Below are positions 1,192 to 62,842 of a DNA stretch of 64,000 bases, one piece after another. The notes under the pieces are model-generated. The model did not search any database. It saw only the letters and a program-made list of their open reading frames with translations, and was not told the origin of the DNA. Made by a program: the position numbers and the translations under genes. Position 1 is the stretch's first letter, and each line of letters opens with the position of its first letter. The DNA comes from Clostridiales bacterium (GTDB lineage: Bacteria > Bacillota > Clostridia > Christensenellales > CAG-138), in assembly GCA_009779405.1 (NCBI GenBank), contig WREI01000002.1, forward strand, positions 3,611-67,610. Reading direction: 5' to 3'.

Positions 1192-3203
1192 TACGTCATC
1201 TTTCATTGGATTTAGAAACATATAGCCCCGAACCCATAGCAAAAGCAGGGTTGTATCGCTATGTGGAACATCCCGACTTTGAAATCCTGCTTTGTGCCTA
1301 TTCCATCGACGGGGAGCAGCCGCGTGTCATTGACGTGTGCAAGGCAAGGCAGGGCTATTCTGATTCATTGTCGGCGTGGCTGGATGTCCTGCAACTCATA
1401 GAAGACCCCGACTATATCAAGCACGCATATAACGCGCCATTCGAGGTCTGCTGCTTGTCAAAGATTGTCGGCCACCCGTTGGACGCATCGCAATGGCGAT
1501 GCACCATGCTCCACGGCCTGTATTGCGGCTTACCCGCGGGCTTAGACGCTGTGGGCAAAGCTATGGGGCTGCCGCAGGAAAAGCAAAAGCTGAATACAGG
1601 GAGAGTGCTTATCAAGTATTTTTGTGTCCCCTGTAATGCAACAATCGCCAATGGACACCGCACCCGCAACCTACCCCAGCACGACCCCGCAAAGTGGCAG
1701 CTGTTTATGGAATACTGCGCGGGGGACGTAGTAGCCGAAATGGAAATCCTACGCCGCCTATCCGCTTTCCCCGTGCCGGGATTTATTCAAAAACAATGGG
1801 AAACCGACCAACGCATAAATGGGCGTGGGGTTGCTGTGGATATGGAGCTTGTAACAAGTGCCGTGTCTATCGGACTGCATACCCGGCAGCAGCTCATGCA
1901 GGAGGCGAAAGAGCTTACAGGGCTGTCCAATCCAAACAGTACCGCGCAGCTCACAGCGTGGCTCAACGAAGCGGAAGAAGACGAGGAAATCAGCAACCTG
2001 CGCAAAGACACCGTAAGGGAACTGCTGGAAAGAGATTTAAGCAGTGTGGCAGCGCGGCGCGTACTGGAAATCAGACAGGAGTTAAGCAAAACCAGCACAA
2101 AAAAATATGATTCCATTTGTACATCCGTTTGCAAAGATGGGCGGGTGCGCGGACTGCTGCAATACTATGGCGCGGGCCGTACGGGCCGCTGGGCCGGGCG
2201 GCTGGTGCAAGTGCATAACCTCCCCCGCACCTATATAGAGCCGCTGGTGCTGGCCCGCAACGCGATAAAAACCCGCCAGTTTGATACTGTGCGCTTATTG
2301 TGGGGGTCTATCCCCGATACACTTTCCCAGCTGATACGGACGGCCTTTATCGCCCCTGAGGGGCACATCCTGCTGGATGCCGACTTCTCCGCCATAGAAA
2401 CGCGTGTTATCGCGTGGCTGGCGGGCGAGGAATGGAAGCTTGAAGTTTTTCAAACTCACGGAAAAATCTACGAAGCTTCTGCCGCGCTGATGTTCGGCGT
2501 ACCTATGGAATTAATTAAAAAGGGAAATCCAGAATATGAATTGCGTCAACGCGGAAAAATCGCAGAACTCGGATTAGGCTATGGAATGGGCGCAACAAAA
2601 TTCCGGGATACCGCAGAATCGCAATATAATGTGATCTTTACCATCGAAGAAGCGACGGAACTTGTGAATCGGTGGCGCAGTTCAAACCCGCGCATATGTG
2701 CCCTGTGGCAGGCTATCGGAGATGCTGCGAGGGCCACCGTTGAAACGGGCAAACCTATGTCAACGCATCACATAAATTTTATCCGCCAATACGACCAGCA
2801 AAGTGGGCTTAATTATCTGAACATTGTTTTGCCCAGCGGGCGGATGCTGTTTTACACGCACCCCACCCCCGCCACAGACCAATGGGGCAGGCCCTCCATT
2901 GCCTTCATGGGCGTAGACCAAACCAAGAAGACGTGGGGCCGAATCGAAACCTACGGCGGCAAACTGGTTGAGAATATCGTGCAGGCCATCGCCCGCGACT
3001 GCTTGGCGGAGGCGATAGAGCAGCTGGAAGAGATGGGCTACCGCATAACCTTCCACGTGCATGACGAGGTTGTAATTGAGGTGCCCATTGAACAAGCCAA
3101 CCTTGTAGCAGTATGTGAAATTATGTCAATGCCGCCCTTATGGGCGCTGAACCTGCCCCTTGGCGCGGATGGCTGGGTGAACGAATTTTATAAAAAGGAT
3201 TGA
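1179..3203 (+). CDS. Family A DNA polymerase with 3'-5' exonuclease domain (phage type)
   Basis: Exo motif LDLETYS; Pol motif A DFSAIETRVIAWLAGE; motif B RQRGKIAELGLGYGMG; motif C HVHDEVVIE. Confidence 0.95.
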   Translation: MGTVIRHLSLDLETYSPEPIAKAGLYRYVEHPDFEILLCAYSIDGEQPRVIDVCKARQGYSDSLSAWLDVLQLIEDPDYIKHAYNAPFEVCCLSKIVGHPLDASQWRCTMLHGLYCGLPAGLDAVGKAMGLPQEKQKLNTGRVLIKYFCVPCNATIANGHRTRNLPQHDPAKWQLFMEYCAGDVVAEMEILRRLSAFPVPGFIQKQWETDQRINGRGVAVDMELVTSAVSIGLHTRQQLMQEAKELTGLSNPNSTAQLTAWLNEAEEDEEISNLRKDTVRELLERDLSSVAARRVLEIRQELSKTSTKKYDSICTSVCKDGRVRGLLQYYGAGRTGRWAGRLVQVHNLPRTYIEPLVLARNAIKTRQFDTVRLLWGSIPDTLSQLIRTAFIAPEGHILLDADFSAIETRVIAWLAGEEWKLEVFQTHGKIYEASAALMFGVPMELIKKGNPEYELRQRGKIAELGLGYGMGATKFRDTAESQYNVIFTIEEATELVNRWRSSNPRICALWQAIGDAARATVETGKPMSTHHINFIRQYDQQSGLNYLNIVLPSGRMLFYTHPTPATDQWGRPSIAFMGVDQTKKTWGRIETYGGKLVENIVQAIARDCLAEAIEQLEEMGYRITFHVHDEVVIEVPIEQANLVAVCEIMSMPPLWALNLPLGADGWVNEFYKKD

Positions 3204-29994: not shown

Positions 29995-30071
29995 TGGTCT
30001 GGGTGACAGGAATTGAACCTGCGACCTCTTGAACCCCATTCAAGCACGCTACCAAACTGCGCTACACCCAG
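29995..30071 (-). tRNA. tRNA-Pro (anticodon GGG), CCA encoded
   Basis: The reverse complement folds as acceptor CTGGGTG/CACCCAG, D arm GCGC-AGTTTGGTA-GCGT, anticodon arm CTTGA-ATGGGGT-TCAAG and T arm GCAGG-TTCAATT-CCTGT, ending A73-CCA. C1:G72 and G37 fit tRNA-Pro. Confidence 0.9.
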
Positions 30072-30089: not shown

Positions 30090-30118
30090 AGTTTAGCACT
30101 TGGGAGCGCGATTGTCAA
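30090..30118 (-). promoter_or_regulatory. Promoter of tRNA-Pro
   Basis: Minus strand: TTGACA, 17-nt spacer (ending in TGC), TAAACT, ~18 nt upstream of the tRNA 5' end. Confidence 0.6.
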
Positions 30119-30152
30119 ATGAATATTTGGTAAAACGCGCGGGTTCTTACTC

Positions 30153-30181
30153 TTGAAAAAATTTGCGGTATGCATTATAAT
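30153..30181 (+). promoter_or_regulatory. Promoter of the M50 protease gene
   Basis: TTGAAA (30153-30158), 17-nt spacer, TATAAT (30176-30181). The in-frame ATG at 30188 lies 6 nt after the -10. Confidence 0.6.
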
Positions 30182-30187
30182 ATATGT

Positions 30188-30859
30188 ATGTTTGATAATT
30201 TGATTTATTTTTTCAATAACCCGATAGAACTCCTGTACTATCTCCCCGTGCTGCTCTTTTCGTTCGCATTGCACGAGTGGGGGCATGCCTTTGCTGCCCA
30301 CAAGAACGGGGACGACACCGCGAAGATGCTGGGGCGGCTCACGCTCAATCCCTTCGCACACGTCGATATCGTTGGGTTGATCTTTCTGCTGGTCTGCGGT
30401 TTTGGCTGGGGTAAACCCGTGCCTATCAATCCGCGCAATTTCAAGAATTATAAAAAGGGTATGCTCTGGGTGTCCTTTGCGGGTGTGCTCTGCAATTTGG
30501 CGCTGATGGTCGCTGCCGTTCTACTGTTTGCAGGCGTCTTGCTTTTCGCGCCGAACCTCATCCATAACGAACCGCTAAAGAGCATCTTTGGCTATTTGGT
30601 CGGTATCAACCTTGCGCTCTTTATTTTCAATCTGCTCCCCATCCCGCCCTTGGATGGCTCTAAAATTGTTGAAACCCTCTTTGCGAGATGGTTGCCCCAA
30701 GGTTACCGCAATTTTATGAATCGCTATGGGCGTTTTGTCATGTTTGGTGTACTCTTTCTCTTAATCCAACTTGGTGTATTTACTTTCATTTTCGATTTTG
30801 CAAGCGATGTCGTTTTCGGCAGCATAGAGCTTCTTTTAAAAGCAATGCTGGGCATCTGA
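30188..30859 (+). CDS. Site-2 protease family (peptidase M50) membrane metalloprotease
   Basis: HEWGHAFAAH (HExxH) inside a TM segment; multiple TMs. The track start at 30170 falls inside the promoter spacer. Confidence 0.85.
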   Translation: MFDNLIYFFNNPIELLYYLPVLLFSFALHEWGHAFAAHKNGDDTAKMLGRLTLNPFAHVDIVGLIFLLVCGFGWGKPVPINPRNFKNYKKGMLWVSFAGVLCNLALMVAAVLLFAGVLLFAPNLIHNEPLKSIFGYLVGINLALFIFNLLPIPPLDGSKIVETLFARWLPQGYRNFMNRYGRFVMFGVLFLLIQLGVFTFIFDFASDVVFGSIELLLKAMLGI

Positions 30860-45730: not shown

Positions 45731-45824
45731 AACGCGCGGTTTGCGGGTGCACGCCTGTGTTTCCGTGTAAAATAAGAGAGGGGCGTCCAAGTATTGGCGC
45801 CCCTTTCATTGAAGGAGGGCATAG

Positions 45825-46775
45825 ATGGAGTCGAATAAGAAATTGCGGCTACACGCGGTCGCAAGGCGGGAACAGCGCGCGGCGTATCTGTTCCTGATCC
45901 CCGCCCTGCTCGGCCTGTCGCTCATCACCTACCTGCCCTTATTGGCCGCGTTCGGCATAGGCTTTACAGACTTGCGCGTCGCGCATTTCATGCCGAACAA
46001 CCCGCCGCCGCTGCAGTTTGTCGGGTTCAAAAATTTTATCGATATATTTACAAACCCGAGCATCAACATACTCAACTCGATTAAAGTGACCATCTATTTC
46101 GCGCTGCTTGCCGTGGTGGGAAGCATCGTGTACTCGATGTTTATCGCAGTACTCCTGAACCGTAAAGTGCCGGGACGCGCGTTCTTCCGCGCCATCTTCT
46201 ATGTGCCGCATATCCTGCCCGCCGCCTCGGTGATGATCAGCTGGTACTTCCTCTTGCTGGATAACGGCGTCATCAACTACATCATCTCTCAGTTCGGCTT
46301 TGAAAGGGTAAAGTTTCTGGACAATATCTATACGGTTATGCCGACCCTGGCTCTCATCTCCGTTTGGACCTGCGGGAACCTGATTGTCATCTTTTTGGCG
46401 GGACTGCAAAACGTGCCGCGGGTCTACCATGAGGCAGCCGAGATAGACGGCGCGAACAGCTGGCAGCGCTTTTGGCGCATCACCATACCCTGCATGACCC
46501 CCATCATCTTCTATAATCTGCTGATGAGCCTTGTCATCAATTTGCAGGTGGTCGTCCCCGCGCTGGCCATCACAAAGGGCGGGCCGGGCGGGCCGGGACA
46601 GGGCGCCACAAGGTTTATGTCCTATTCCATGTACCAGATCGCCTTTATCAACGGAGAATTCGGGCGGGCCGGGGCTGTCGCGTTTGTCTTCTTTGTCGTC
46701 GCCGCAGTTTTCGCATTCATACTGTTCGCCACGAGTAAGCGATGGATATTTTATCAGGGGGACGAGAAGAAGTGA
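45825..46775 (+). CDS. Sugar ABC transporter permease (MalF-like)
   Basis: Multi-TM; EAA-loop region EAAEIDGANSWQRFWRITIP. Confidence 0.9.
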   Translation: MESNKKLRLHAVARREQRAAYLFLIPALLGLSLITYLPLLAAFGIGFTDLRVAHFMPNNPPPLQFVGFKNFIDIFTNPSINILNSIKVTIYFALLAVVGSIVYSMFIAVLLNRKVPGRAFFRAIFYVPHILPAASVMISWYFLLLDNGVINYIISQFGFERVKFLDNIYTVMPTLALISVWTCGNLIVIFLAGLQNVPRVYHEAAEIDGANSWQRFWRITIPCMTPIIFYNLLMSLVINLQVVVPALAITKGGPGGPGQGATRFMSYSMYQIAFINGEFGRAGAVAFVFFVVAAVFAFILFATSKRWIFYQGDEKK

Positions 46776-59105: not shown

Positions 59106-59321
59106 GTATTTATATCAATCCCAACAAACTTTCCTTTTGTTTCCCTGCATTGCAGTAGGCAGACTTGATTTATGGGGATTCCTAACCACCCAACCAAACT
59201 GCGTTTGGTCGGGACCCGGCTCCCCATAAATCATAAAAGAAACGGGAGTGCCGCCCAACGGGAGACGCAGTTCGTTTCTACATTGTGAACTGCTTTTGCG
59301 CCCCGCGCAAAAGTAAATCGA

Positions 59322-59591
59322 AGTGCCGTACACCCGTCCTTCGACGGCGGCGTACAAGCGGTATGCGCAGCGGTGGCTCCGGACAAACGTTCCCGCGGCA
59401 CACATGAAAATCCGCTTAGTGCTGCTTCCGTCAGGACCTGACACGGTTCACGGCATCATGTTGCACGGGGCTCGCCCATCAACGCTCCGTCTGCGCGCCT
59501 GCCTTATACGCAGACGTCTCGGGACGGGGATTACACCTTGCTATGGCGGATTGCAAGTTCAGGGCACCGCCAGCTCCCCGCTTAGTACGGC
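59322..59591 (-). ncRNA. ffs: Signal recognition particle RNA, long (Bacillus/Clostridia-type, ~270 nt)
   Basis: The minus strand contains the domain IV core GUGUCAGGUCCUGACGGAAGCAGCACUAAGC. 5' GCCGUAC pairs with 3' GUACGGC. A strong promoter sits 7 nt upstream. Ends are approximate. Confidence 0.8.
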
Positions 59592-59597
59592 ATTGTT

Positions 59598-59647
59598 ATT
59601 ATATCACGAAATAGAAAACTTGCAAAGCCATGTTTCTGTGATATAAT
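59598..59647. promoter_or_regulatory. Back-to-back divergent promoters sharing one palindromic -35 hexamer
   Basis: TTGCAA (59620-59625) is its own reverse complement. On each strand it is followed by a 16-nt spacer ending in TGA and then TATAAT (plus 59642-59647; minus 59603-59598). Confidence 0.7.
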
Positions 59648-59653
59648 CGGTTT

Positions 59654-60496
59654 ATGAAACGACGTTTTTTGATTTTGTTCGCCATAGGCGCCGCACTCCT
59701 CCTCTTTGCGGGCTGCGGGGTGGCGGAGGTTCCCGAAGCAACGGATACGCCCGAGCCGACGGGCACGCCCTTTGCGGTGGAAATTGCGCAAGTGACGCTC
59801 CCTCCGACCGCTACGCCTGCGCCGACCGATACGCCCGAGCCGACGCCAAGCCCGACGCCCACGCCGAAGCCCTTGGAGGGGAAGATTATTGGCATTGATC
59901 CGGGGCATCAGAGGAAGGGCAACCATGATACCGAGCCGCAAAGTCCCGATTCTCCCATTATGAAGGCCAAATGCAGCAGCGGAACGCGGGCGCTGGGCGG
60001 CGCGCATGAATATGAAGTCAATTTGGAAGTGGCACTGCGCCTGCGGGCGCTTTTGGAGGAATTGGGCGCGACGGTTATTATGACCCGAGAGAGCCACGCT
60101 GTGGATATTTCCAATATAGAACGCGCGCTGATATTCAATGCGGCGGGGACAGATTACGCGCTCAGATTGCACTGCAACGGCGTAGACAATACGAGCAGGG
60201 CAGGCGCCTTTATGCTGGTGCCGCAGACAAACCCGTTTCTGGAGGATTGTCAGCGGGCGGCGCGACTGCTGATTGACGCTTTTTGTGCAAAAACGGGCGC
60301 AAATAATCTCGGCATAGTCGCGCGCGATGACCAAACGGGCTTCAACTGGTGCGAACGCATGATTATCAATATTGAGATGGGGCATATGACCAATCCCGAA
60401 GAAGGCAAGCTGCTCTCAGACCTCGCCTATTGGGATTTGATGGCGGTGGGGCTTTGCGAGGGGATCTTGGCGTATTTTGAAGGAGCGGGATTGTAA
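59654..60496 (+). CDS. N-acetylmuramoyl-L-alanine amidase (Amidase_3) lipoprotein
   Basis: Signal/lipobox MKRRFLILFAIGAALLLFAGC; Pro/Thr linker; IGIDPGHQ .. HEYEVNLEVALRLRALLEELGATVIMTRE. Confidence 0.88.
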   Translation: MKRRFLILFAIGAALLLFAGCGVAEVPEATDTPEPTGTPFAVEIAQVTLPPTATPAPTDTPEPTPSPTPTPKPLEGKIIGIDPGHQRKGNHDTEPQSPDSPIMKAKCSSGTRALGGAHEYEVNLEVALRLRALLEELGATVIMTRESHAVDISNIERALIFNAAGTDYALRLHCNGVDNTSRAGAFMLVPQTNPFLEDCQRAARLLIDAFCAKTGANNLGIVARDDQTGFNWCERMIINIEMGHMTNPEEGKLLSDLAYWDLMAVGLCEGILAYFEGAGL

Positions 60497-60515
60497 GTAA
60501 TAGGTAATAATGCAG

Positions 60516-60557
60516 AATGCAGAGAGCTTGGGTTCGGCTCTCTGCATTTTCTTTTTG
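60516..60557 (+). terminator. Intrinsic terminator of the amidase gene
   Basis: AATGCAGAGAGC-TTGGGTTCG-GCTCTCTGCATT (12-bp stem) followed by TTCTTTTT. Confidence 0.85.
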
Positions 60558-62769: not shown

Positions 62770-62798
62770 TTGCAATCGCGGGATATAAGTGCTATACT
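62770..62798 (+). promoter_or_regulatory. rpsT promoter
   Basis: TTGCAA (62770-62775), 17-nt spacer ending in TGC, TATACT (62793-62798). Confidence 0.6.
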
Positions 62799-62842
62799 GC
62801 TATTTGTTCAAATATGCAATAAAATTTTTGGGGGTATATCCT

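Follow-up and report, generated by a model that had tools for sequence, protein, structure and literature searches.

Two predicted tail-to-tail promoters sharing a palindromic −35 hexamer between the SRP RNA gene and an amidase gene of a Clostridiales bacterium

Introduction

The promoters pRM and pR of phage lambda lie back to back, with separate −35 boxes and starts about 82 bp apart, and interference between polymerases is known for this pair. Both are under the control of the CI and Cro operators, and pRM makes a leaderless mRNA, cI (PMC10491246). Divergent promoters are classed as overlapping when the partner start falls between −80 and +20, which holds for about 14% of Escherichia coli promoters (Bendtsen et al. 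2011, PMC3167631). The strength of interference depends on the dwell time of polymerase at each promoter and can be negligible at low occupancy (PMC3167631, PMC4207663, PMC12825309). In the Pc/Pr pair of pLS20 from Bacillus subtilis, the −10 of one promoter coincides with the −35 of its partner, and switching is under the control of a regulator (PMC4207663). Bidirectional promoters of the type described by Warman and colleagues contain a symmetric element that is read on both strands; the −10 is shared, polymerase binds in one orientation at a time, and the distance between starts is 18 (or 10 or 23) bp (PMC12825309, PMC13644379). Few explicit cases of a shared −35 were found in the literature. 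A relevant one is ddrR–umuDAb of Acinetobacter, where both divergent −35s are reported over the same inverted repeat, of TTGAA(A/T) type, which is part of the binding region of the repressor UmuDAb (PMC7273328).

The stretch of DNA analyzed here, termed the window, spans 64,000 nucleotides of a MAG from an uncultured Clostridiales bacterium. In it, a 63-bp spacer separates ffs, the gene for the SRP RNA, from a gene for an N-acetylmuramoyl-L-alanine amidase, and two near-consensus promoters face outwards from a palindromic TTGCAA. The spacer probably holds two real tail-to-tail σA promoters that share their −35, one for SRP RNA starting at G59591 and one for a leaderless amidase mRNA, with the juxtaposition a by-product and the interference modest. 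Such a unit is a new case of the already known overlapping divergent (tail-to-tail) promoters, competition between polymerases is likewise an established concept, and no new kind of mechanism is opened.

Each predicted start lies at −63 of its partner promoter, inside the range of about −80 to +20 that defines the overlapping class (PMC3167631). As in that class and in pLS20 Pc/Pr, starts on opposite strands fall inside each other's polymerase footprint, and exclusion of one polymerase by another would be expected. Unlike those systems, the overlap here is exactly one complete palindromic −35, with equal 16-bp spacers, near-consensus elements, and no evident regulator. The likeness to the Warman type is the symmetric element, but the shared element here is the −35; the −10 boxes are separate, 38 bp from edge to edge, and the predicted starts are 63 bp apart where 10–23 bp are required. 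By the definition of those authors, the locus therefore consists of two separate divergent promoters, and sharing of the −35 only is a geometry outside the recent work on −10-sharing promoters. The lambda pair resembles the locus in being back to back and in yielding a leaderless mRNA on one side, but no operators are seen in the ffs–amidase spacer. Likewise, no repressor is implicated here as it is in Acinetobacter, and one of the two products is a stable RNA. What stands out is the exact palindromic sharing, the equal spacers, the lack of visible regulator sites, and a stable RNA paired with a probable leaderless mRNA.

Sequence and Geometry of the Spacer

On the plus strand, the spacer and its borders read ...gtacgg c attgtt ATTATA TCA cgaaatagaaaac TTGCAA agccatgtttctg TGA TATAAT cggttt ATG aaa cga... 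The palindromic −35 hexamer (TTGCAA, 59620–59625, both strands) is separated by 16 bp from the −10 box of each strand. The extended −10 of the ffs promoter, TGA-TATAAT, occupies 59606 to 59598 of the minus strand (TGA 59606 to 59604, TATAAT 59603 to 59598) and is followed after 6 nt by G59591. That of the amidase promoter, also TGA-TATAAT, occupies 59639–59647 of the plus strand (TGA 59639–59641, TATAAT 59642–59647), 6 nt before A59654. An earlier sequence-only reading had placed the hexamer and both extended −10s at these coordinates, and re-reading of the sequence and a consensus scan confirm them. It had also described 16 nt followed by TGA on each strand; the 16-nt spacer stands when counted to TATAAT, while the TGA falls inside it and is preceded by 13 nt.

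Both sites score 10/12 with TG and a 16-bp spacer in the consensus scan. On each strand, TATAAT carries TG at −15/−14 (TGaTATAAT), and a TTG-type hexamer (TTGCAA) lies 16 bp upstream, within the 16–18 bp allowed for a −35. The plus-strand element has a further TG in front, giving TGTG, the full TRTG motif of the Gram-positive “−16 region”, and the minus strand reads CGTG. TTGCAA reads identically on both strands, and the two −35 hexamers therefore coincide completely. The predicted starts, 59591 and 59654, are separated by 63 bp, and the −10 boxes by 44 bp from centre to centre.

Sites of this quality are rare in the window. Exact TATAAT occurs 17 times, four of these with TG, and the two sites of the spacer are the only ones that also have a TTG-type −35 at 16–18 bp. 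The pattern TTGCAA-N13-TGNTATAAT, with one mismatch allowed, is found twice in the 64 kb, compared with 0.07 expected from shuffles. From base composition, both sites flanking one TTGCAA would be expected about 2e-8 times per window. The rarity of the double site, by shuffles and by the composition estimate, rules out chance. TTGCAA itself is a recurrent −35 variant of this genome, as it precedes rpsT (S20; TTGCAA-17-TGcTATACT upstream, window 62770–62800) and is the −35 of 4 of the 23 TTG-type promoter-like sites in the window.

The inverted arms of the unit, ATTATATCAC and GTGATATAAT, form a perfect 10-bp repeat with 30 bp between them according to a repeat finder, one base pair longer than the 9-bp ends first described. 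A perfect repeat of this length could suggest an operator for a protein, or a cruciform or hairpin element, in place of two promoters. Its arms are 30 bp apart, their sequence is simply TRTGnTATAAT, and all symmetric positions but four belong to promoter consensus elements. The unit had been called a near-perfect dyad, which is too strong: 30 of 50 positions are symmetric, of which the promoter elements account for 10 + 6 + 10 and the 24 positions of the inner spacers for four. In addition, the repeat would be part of neither transcript, since both start sites lie outside it. With the symmetry confined to promoter elements, the unit is best read as two promoters, and an operator, hairpin, or cruciform, rejected on these grounds, is hardly credible. 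The symmetry would instead simply add up from the elements of two consensus promoters, namely two copies of TRTGnTATAAT and a palindromic −35.

The Predicted Promoter of the SRP RNA Gene

The gene ffs lies on the minus strand (59326–59591) and encodes a large, Bacillus-type SRP RNA. The Rfam family RF01854 matches from 59590 to 59326 over its full length (model positions 1–256) with 202.9 bits, compared with a gathering score of 60. The +1 predicted from the promoter, G59591, is one base ahead of the Rfam start and is able to pair with C59325, which would add one pair to the terminal helix. A terminator-like hairpin with a T-run follows on the minus strand about 70 nt past the 3′ end of the RNA (59240–59256). 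Transcription from the leftward promoter would thus begin at the mature 5′ end of SRP RNA or beside it, so that no 5′ processing would be needed. In B. subtilis, by contrast, ffs is made as a precursor that needs 5′ processing, and the primary transcript here probably begins at the mature end.

The design of this promoter was compared with that of other ffs genes in a broad survey, in which a pattern for SRP domain IV was scanned against species-representative genomes and gave at least 120 loci from Firmicutes and beyond. The 5′ end was placed by alignment in 62 of the loci listed, 59 of them distinct. None of the matches listed is from a close relative of the window, the best SRP identity being 75%. 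Among these matches, 21 of the 59 distinct loci have a −10 box 5–8 nt before the SRP RNA 5′ end, and in 9 of those 21 the −35 is TTGCAA, with rumen Clostridia MAGs and two Staphylococcus species included. A predicted promoter that abuts the SRP RNA and uses TTGCAA as −35 is, by this comparison, a common design in these bacteria. Its recurrence at other ffs loci makes it very probable that the minus-strand site is the ffs promoter, and the original proposal that a minus-strand promoter with a G start near 59591 drives SRP RNA is supported by this comparison. Two details are confined to the window's clade among the matches listed. The spacers of ffs promoters outside it are all 17–18 bp, 16 bp being found only in the window and its close relative, which counts against the proposed reading, and no −10 lies on the other side of the ffs −35 outside the clade.

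Many of the remaining ffs loci listed sit straight behind a tRNA gene. In a number of these (L088, L095, L097, L105, and others, many of them Peptococcaceae, Pelotomaculum, or Desulfotomaculum-type), ffs begins about 10–50 nt behind the tRNA and lacks a separate promoter. Such a layout implies that the RNA is co-transcribed and processed, unlike that of the self-promoted ffs of the window.

A separate 9-nt perfect inverted repeat, TTGCAAGTT/AACTTGCAA, connects a stem of the SRP RNA 5′ domain (59551–59559) with the −35 region (59617–59625). It is probably due to chance.

The Amidase Gene and Its Predicted Leaderless mRNA

The gene on the other side of the spacer (59654–60496, plus strand) encodes a lipoprotein-type N-acetylmuramoyl-L-alanine amidase. 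The protein starts MKRRFLILFAIGAALLLFAGC, a signal peptide with a lipobox, and continues with a Pro/Thr linker and an Amidase_3 domain (PF01520, 3.8e-28, 99.1 bits compared with a Pfam cut-off of 27). A CwlD-type sporulation amidase, which would predict σE or σG promoters, was considered and rejected, as the match reaches 51.8 bits with an equivalog cut-off of 221.55. Directly past the stop codon is a terminator-like hairpin of 15 pairs (60514–60550, plus strand), which indicates that the amidase is a monocistronic unit.

The start of this gene is unusual for the window. A strong GGAGG-type Shine–Dalgarno (SD) sequence precedes about 40 other genes, which is most of them. Reading of the sequence at the amidase start found no SD and no in-frame start upstream, ATG 59654 being the first possible start in the open reading frame. 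The sequence from the −10 onwards is TATAAT-cggttt-ATG, which puts the predicted +1 on the A of the start codon, at the 6–7 nt expected of a leaderless layout. Together, the missing SD, the lack of an upstream in-frame start, and the +1 on the ATG make a leaderless amidase mRNA likely. In that case the first nucleotide of the mRNA made from the rightward promoter would be the A of the AUG, and translation would proceed without an SD. The consensus scan found no further promoter-like site on the plus strand upstream of the amidase, and the plus-strand site of the spacer appears to be its only plausible promoter. If this holds, the locus adds a likely leaderless mRNA to a Clostridia lineage that otherwise uses strong SD sites.

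A second gene in the window also looks leaderless. At 30090–30190, TTGAAA (30153), 17 nt, TATAAT (30176–30181), and 6 nt lead to the ATG at 30188 of a membrane protein. This gene is back to back with a tRNA promoter (TTGACA, from 30118 on the opposite strand, 17 nt, TGcTAAACT), and the −35 boxes of the two are unshared and 34 bp apart.

Distribution among Relatives

Homologues of the amidase were sought in a metagenome scan that gave nine loci, and the loci of P0002, P0003, P0016, P0011, P0009, and P0004 were looked up. The closest homologue, P0002 (70% amino acid identity), lies on two contigs, L001 and L002, and both carry ffs in the same divergent position. Identity to the window is 94.7% for the SRP RNA there and, at the nucleotide level, 75.6% for the amidase coding sequence. 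To the left of ffs lies the gene for the beta subunit of a serine dehydratase in the window, whereas L001 has another gene there, its product read as methylase-like; this indicates that the ffs–amidase junction outlived a nearby rearrangement. From G59591 to the end of the plus-strand −10, 52 of 57 positions (91%) are identical. The −35 hexamer and both extended −10s are unchanged: all 24 element positions (two TGnTATAAT and TTGCAA) are kept, and the five substitutions all fall in spacers. This difference (0/24 versus 5/33 positions changed) is not significant (Fisher p = 0.067) and comes from one independent comparison. The discriminator of the amidase promoter has also changed, from cggttt in the window to attgttt in L001/L002 (TATAAT-attgttt-ATG), and the only suitably placed purine is still the A of the ATG.

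P0003 (66%, L003), the second closest homologue, is in a different context and not beside ffs, and it has TGgTATACT 7 nt before its start codon (TATACT-cttatcc-ATG). On L003, a palindromic TTGCAA (2933–2938, within 2900–3003) serves a divergent radical-SAM/DUF512 gene on the minus strand, with the layout TTGCAA-17-TATACT-6-ATG. Both the amidase and the radical-SAM/DUF512 gene of L003 look leaderless, and the −35 is unshared; this arrangement suggests that leaderless layouts may recur in the group. In both the 70% and the 66% homologue, the ATG is thus preceded at 6–7 nt by a −10, which supports the original placement of the plus-strand start on the A of ATG 59654, without an SD. Both start sites of the spacer are predictions that comparison supports well.

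The layout is not a general trait of the amidase family, an idea rejected because homologues of 46–63% identity (L006–L012) have no −10 at 6–7 nt before the ATG. In L006–L010, SD-like or long regions precede the amidase, L011 has no −10 adjoining the ATG, and L012 is borderline with GATAAT 9 nt before it. Among the homologue loci examined with Rfam and blastn, ffs is beside the amidase only in L001/L002 and is absent from loci with 66% identity or less. In L134 and L135, large gaps precede the amidase; neither matched SRP RNA in blastn, and that of L134 encodes an S21-like (rpsU) protein.

These data bear on whether the plus-strand site is used at all. It could be that only the ffs promoter is functional and that its plus-strand mirror is silent or very weak; the amidase would then be expressed from a start within ffs, through a different σ factor, or scarcely. 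Abutting ffs promoters are widespread while the opposite −10 is unique to the window's clade among the ffs matches listed, and leaderless candidates are rare in the window, two among about 55 genes; both points agree with a silent mirror. Against this, TGTGaTATAAT is a perfect extended −10 where the window has only four TGnTATAAT, it is kept exactly in L001/L002, and an extended −10 is found equally far from the ATG in the 66% homologue, whose context is unrelated. A longer mRNA would also have no SD to use, and the plus strand offers no other promoter-like site upstream. A silent plus-strand site is therefore unlikely, and two functional promoters remain the preferred reading.

None of the other 58 distinct ffs loci among the matches listed has the dyad. 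Conservation at orthologous ffs loci had been named at the outset as one of the points on which the proposal should be judged; the dyad is kept in the single close relative, L001/L002, and absent elsewhere among the loci surveyed. As it is kept only in that relative and is absent from other ffs and from more distant amidase loci surveyed, the predicted arrangement is young and restricted to two species-level lineages, and is not a conserved feature of ffs. Its presence in only two related lineages points to a by-product of juxtaposition and compaction and not to a conserved regulatory device. Most likely, a leaderless amidase gene in one lineage came to lie against a pre-existing TTGCAA-type ffs promoter, with compaction of the spacer.

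Possible Interplay of the Two Promoters

The proposed working of the unit is that two housekeeping (σA-type) promoters lie tail to tail in the 63-bp spacer with coincident −35 hexamers. Region 4 of σ from two holoenzymes would be unable to share one major groove. Canonical complexes at the two promoters would for this reason exclude each other, and polymerase would be partitioned between them, in line with the earlier proposal of mutually exclusive or competitive initiation. Such a steric clash at the shared −35 would follow soundly from the known structure of RNA polymerase, and its importance in the cell is doubtful. Extended −10 promoters depend least on the −35 and tolerate the loss of its contacts. 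The practical effect of exclusion would probably be modest, because both extended −10s are perfect and neither gene needs extreme rates of initiation. Both promoters are strong on paper, which favors interference, and their perfect extended −10s weaken the notion that the shared hexamer decides the outcome.

The shared −35 might also have been selected as a competitive switch, making initiation of SRP RNA and amidase mRNA anticorrelated or reducing noise. With both promoters near consensus, occupancy could be high, and promoters that share a −10 do compete once activity is high (PMC12825309; model PMC3167631). The unit is moreover intact between the window and L001/L002 despite an amidase that has diverged to 75.6% and a rearranged left flank. 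However, it is absent from the other ffs loci listed and from amidase loci at 66% identity or below, a narrow distribution that speaks against a conserved role in regulation. The spacer shows no apparent site for a regulator, no functional link between SRP RNA and the amidase is obvious, extended −10 promoters tolerate lost −35 contacts (a textbook property), and complete sharing of the −35 shows no enrichment relative to other offsets across the 1 Mb of loci fetched. A switch has no positive support beyond the geometry and is a doubtful explanation; the arrangement was probably not selected as one.

Mutual help would be the opposite outcome. Each −10 occupies −56 to −51 of the partner promoter, the position of a distal UP element, and the spacer has 29% G+C in a window of roughly 54%. 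Each A+T-rich −10 might then act as the distal UP element of its partner and, together with negative supercoiling from divergent transcription, each promoter would stimulate the other. Reciprocal stimulation at symmetric bidirectional promoters is reported in a preprint (bioRxiv 10.1101/2020.01.31.928960). The sites for the αCTD would, however, be taken by σ region 2 of the other polymerase. The arm ATTATATCAC is also a poor fit to the UP consensus. Reciprocal stimulation of this kind is improbable, although an influence of either sign between the promoters is conceivable from the position of their −10s.

If both promoters fire as the preferred reading predicts, the 50-bp unit would be about the most compact tail-to-tail pair of full −35/−10 promoters possible. 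It would then offer a clean natural template for the study of interference in which only the −35 contact is shared, with near-consensus promoters and no regulator sites.

Candidate Sharing of the −35 at Other Loci

A broader proposal is that a palindromic −35 with two extended −10s forms a distinct and recurrent class of compact bidirectional promoters in Firmicutes, with starts about 63–65 bp apart. If so, the orientation of polymerase at one binding site for σ region 4 would partition initiation between two genes. At the present locus, such a class would mean that the supply of SRP RNA is coupled to a secreted cell-wall hydrolase and that expression noise is lowered. A strict search of about 1 Mb of fetched Firmicutes loci gave two more independent candidates for −35 sharing, compared with none in 20 shuffles. 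One is at L076 (534–591), with TTGCAA and 17/17 spacers; its plus side leads to glyA, and its minus side has no clear target. The other, at L008 (2040–2110, the same in L009 and L010), has TTGTCAA and 16/17 spacers and lies between an amidase homologue and an open reading frame for a small secreted protein. Within the same 1 Mb or so, back-to-back −35 boxes show no significant preference for zero offset (two independent cases versus a mean of 0.42 per offset). The existence of the class has a slim chance of being right, and −35 sharing as a class is a lead and not a finding.

Other Features of the Window

Positions 1–28800 hold a co-directional block of genes with matches in PHROGs to a phage-type DNA polymerase, a primase-helicase, a large terminase, a portal, a minor head protein, a tape measure protein, and a Hoc-like decoration protein. 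A minus-strand tRNA gene (29998–30071) lies about 1.2 kb beyond the end of the block, which probably represents a prophage inserted beside this tRNA. At 45790–45825, two divergent genes start 34 bp apart with the SD sites of both inside the gap. As these 34 bp hold both SDs, the promoters of the two genes must lie in each other's coding regions.
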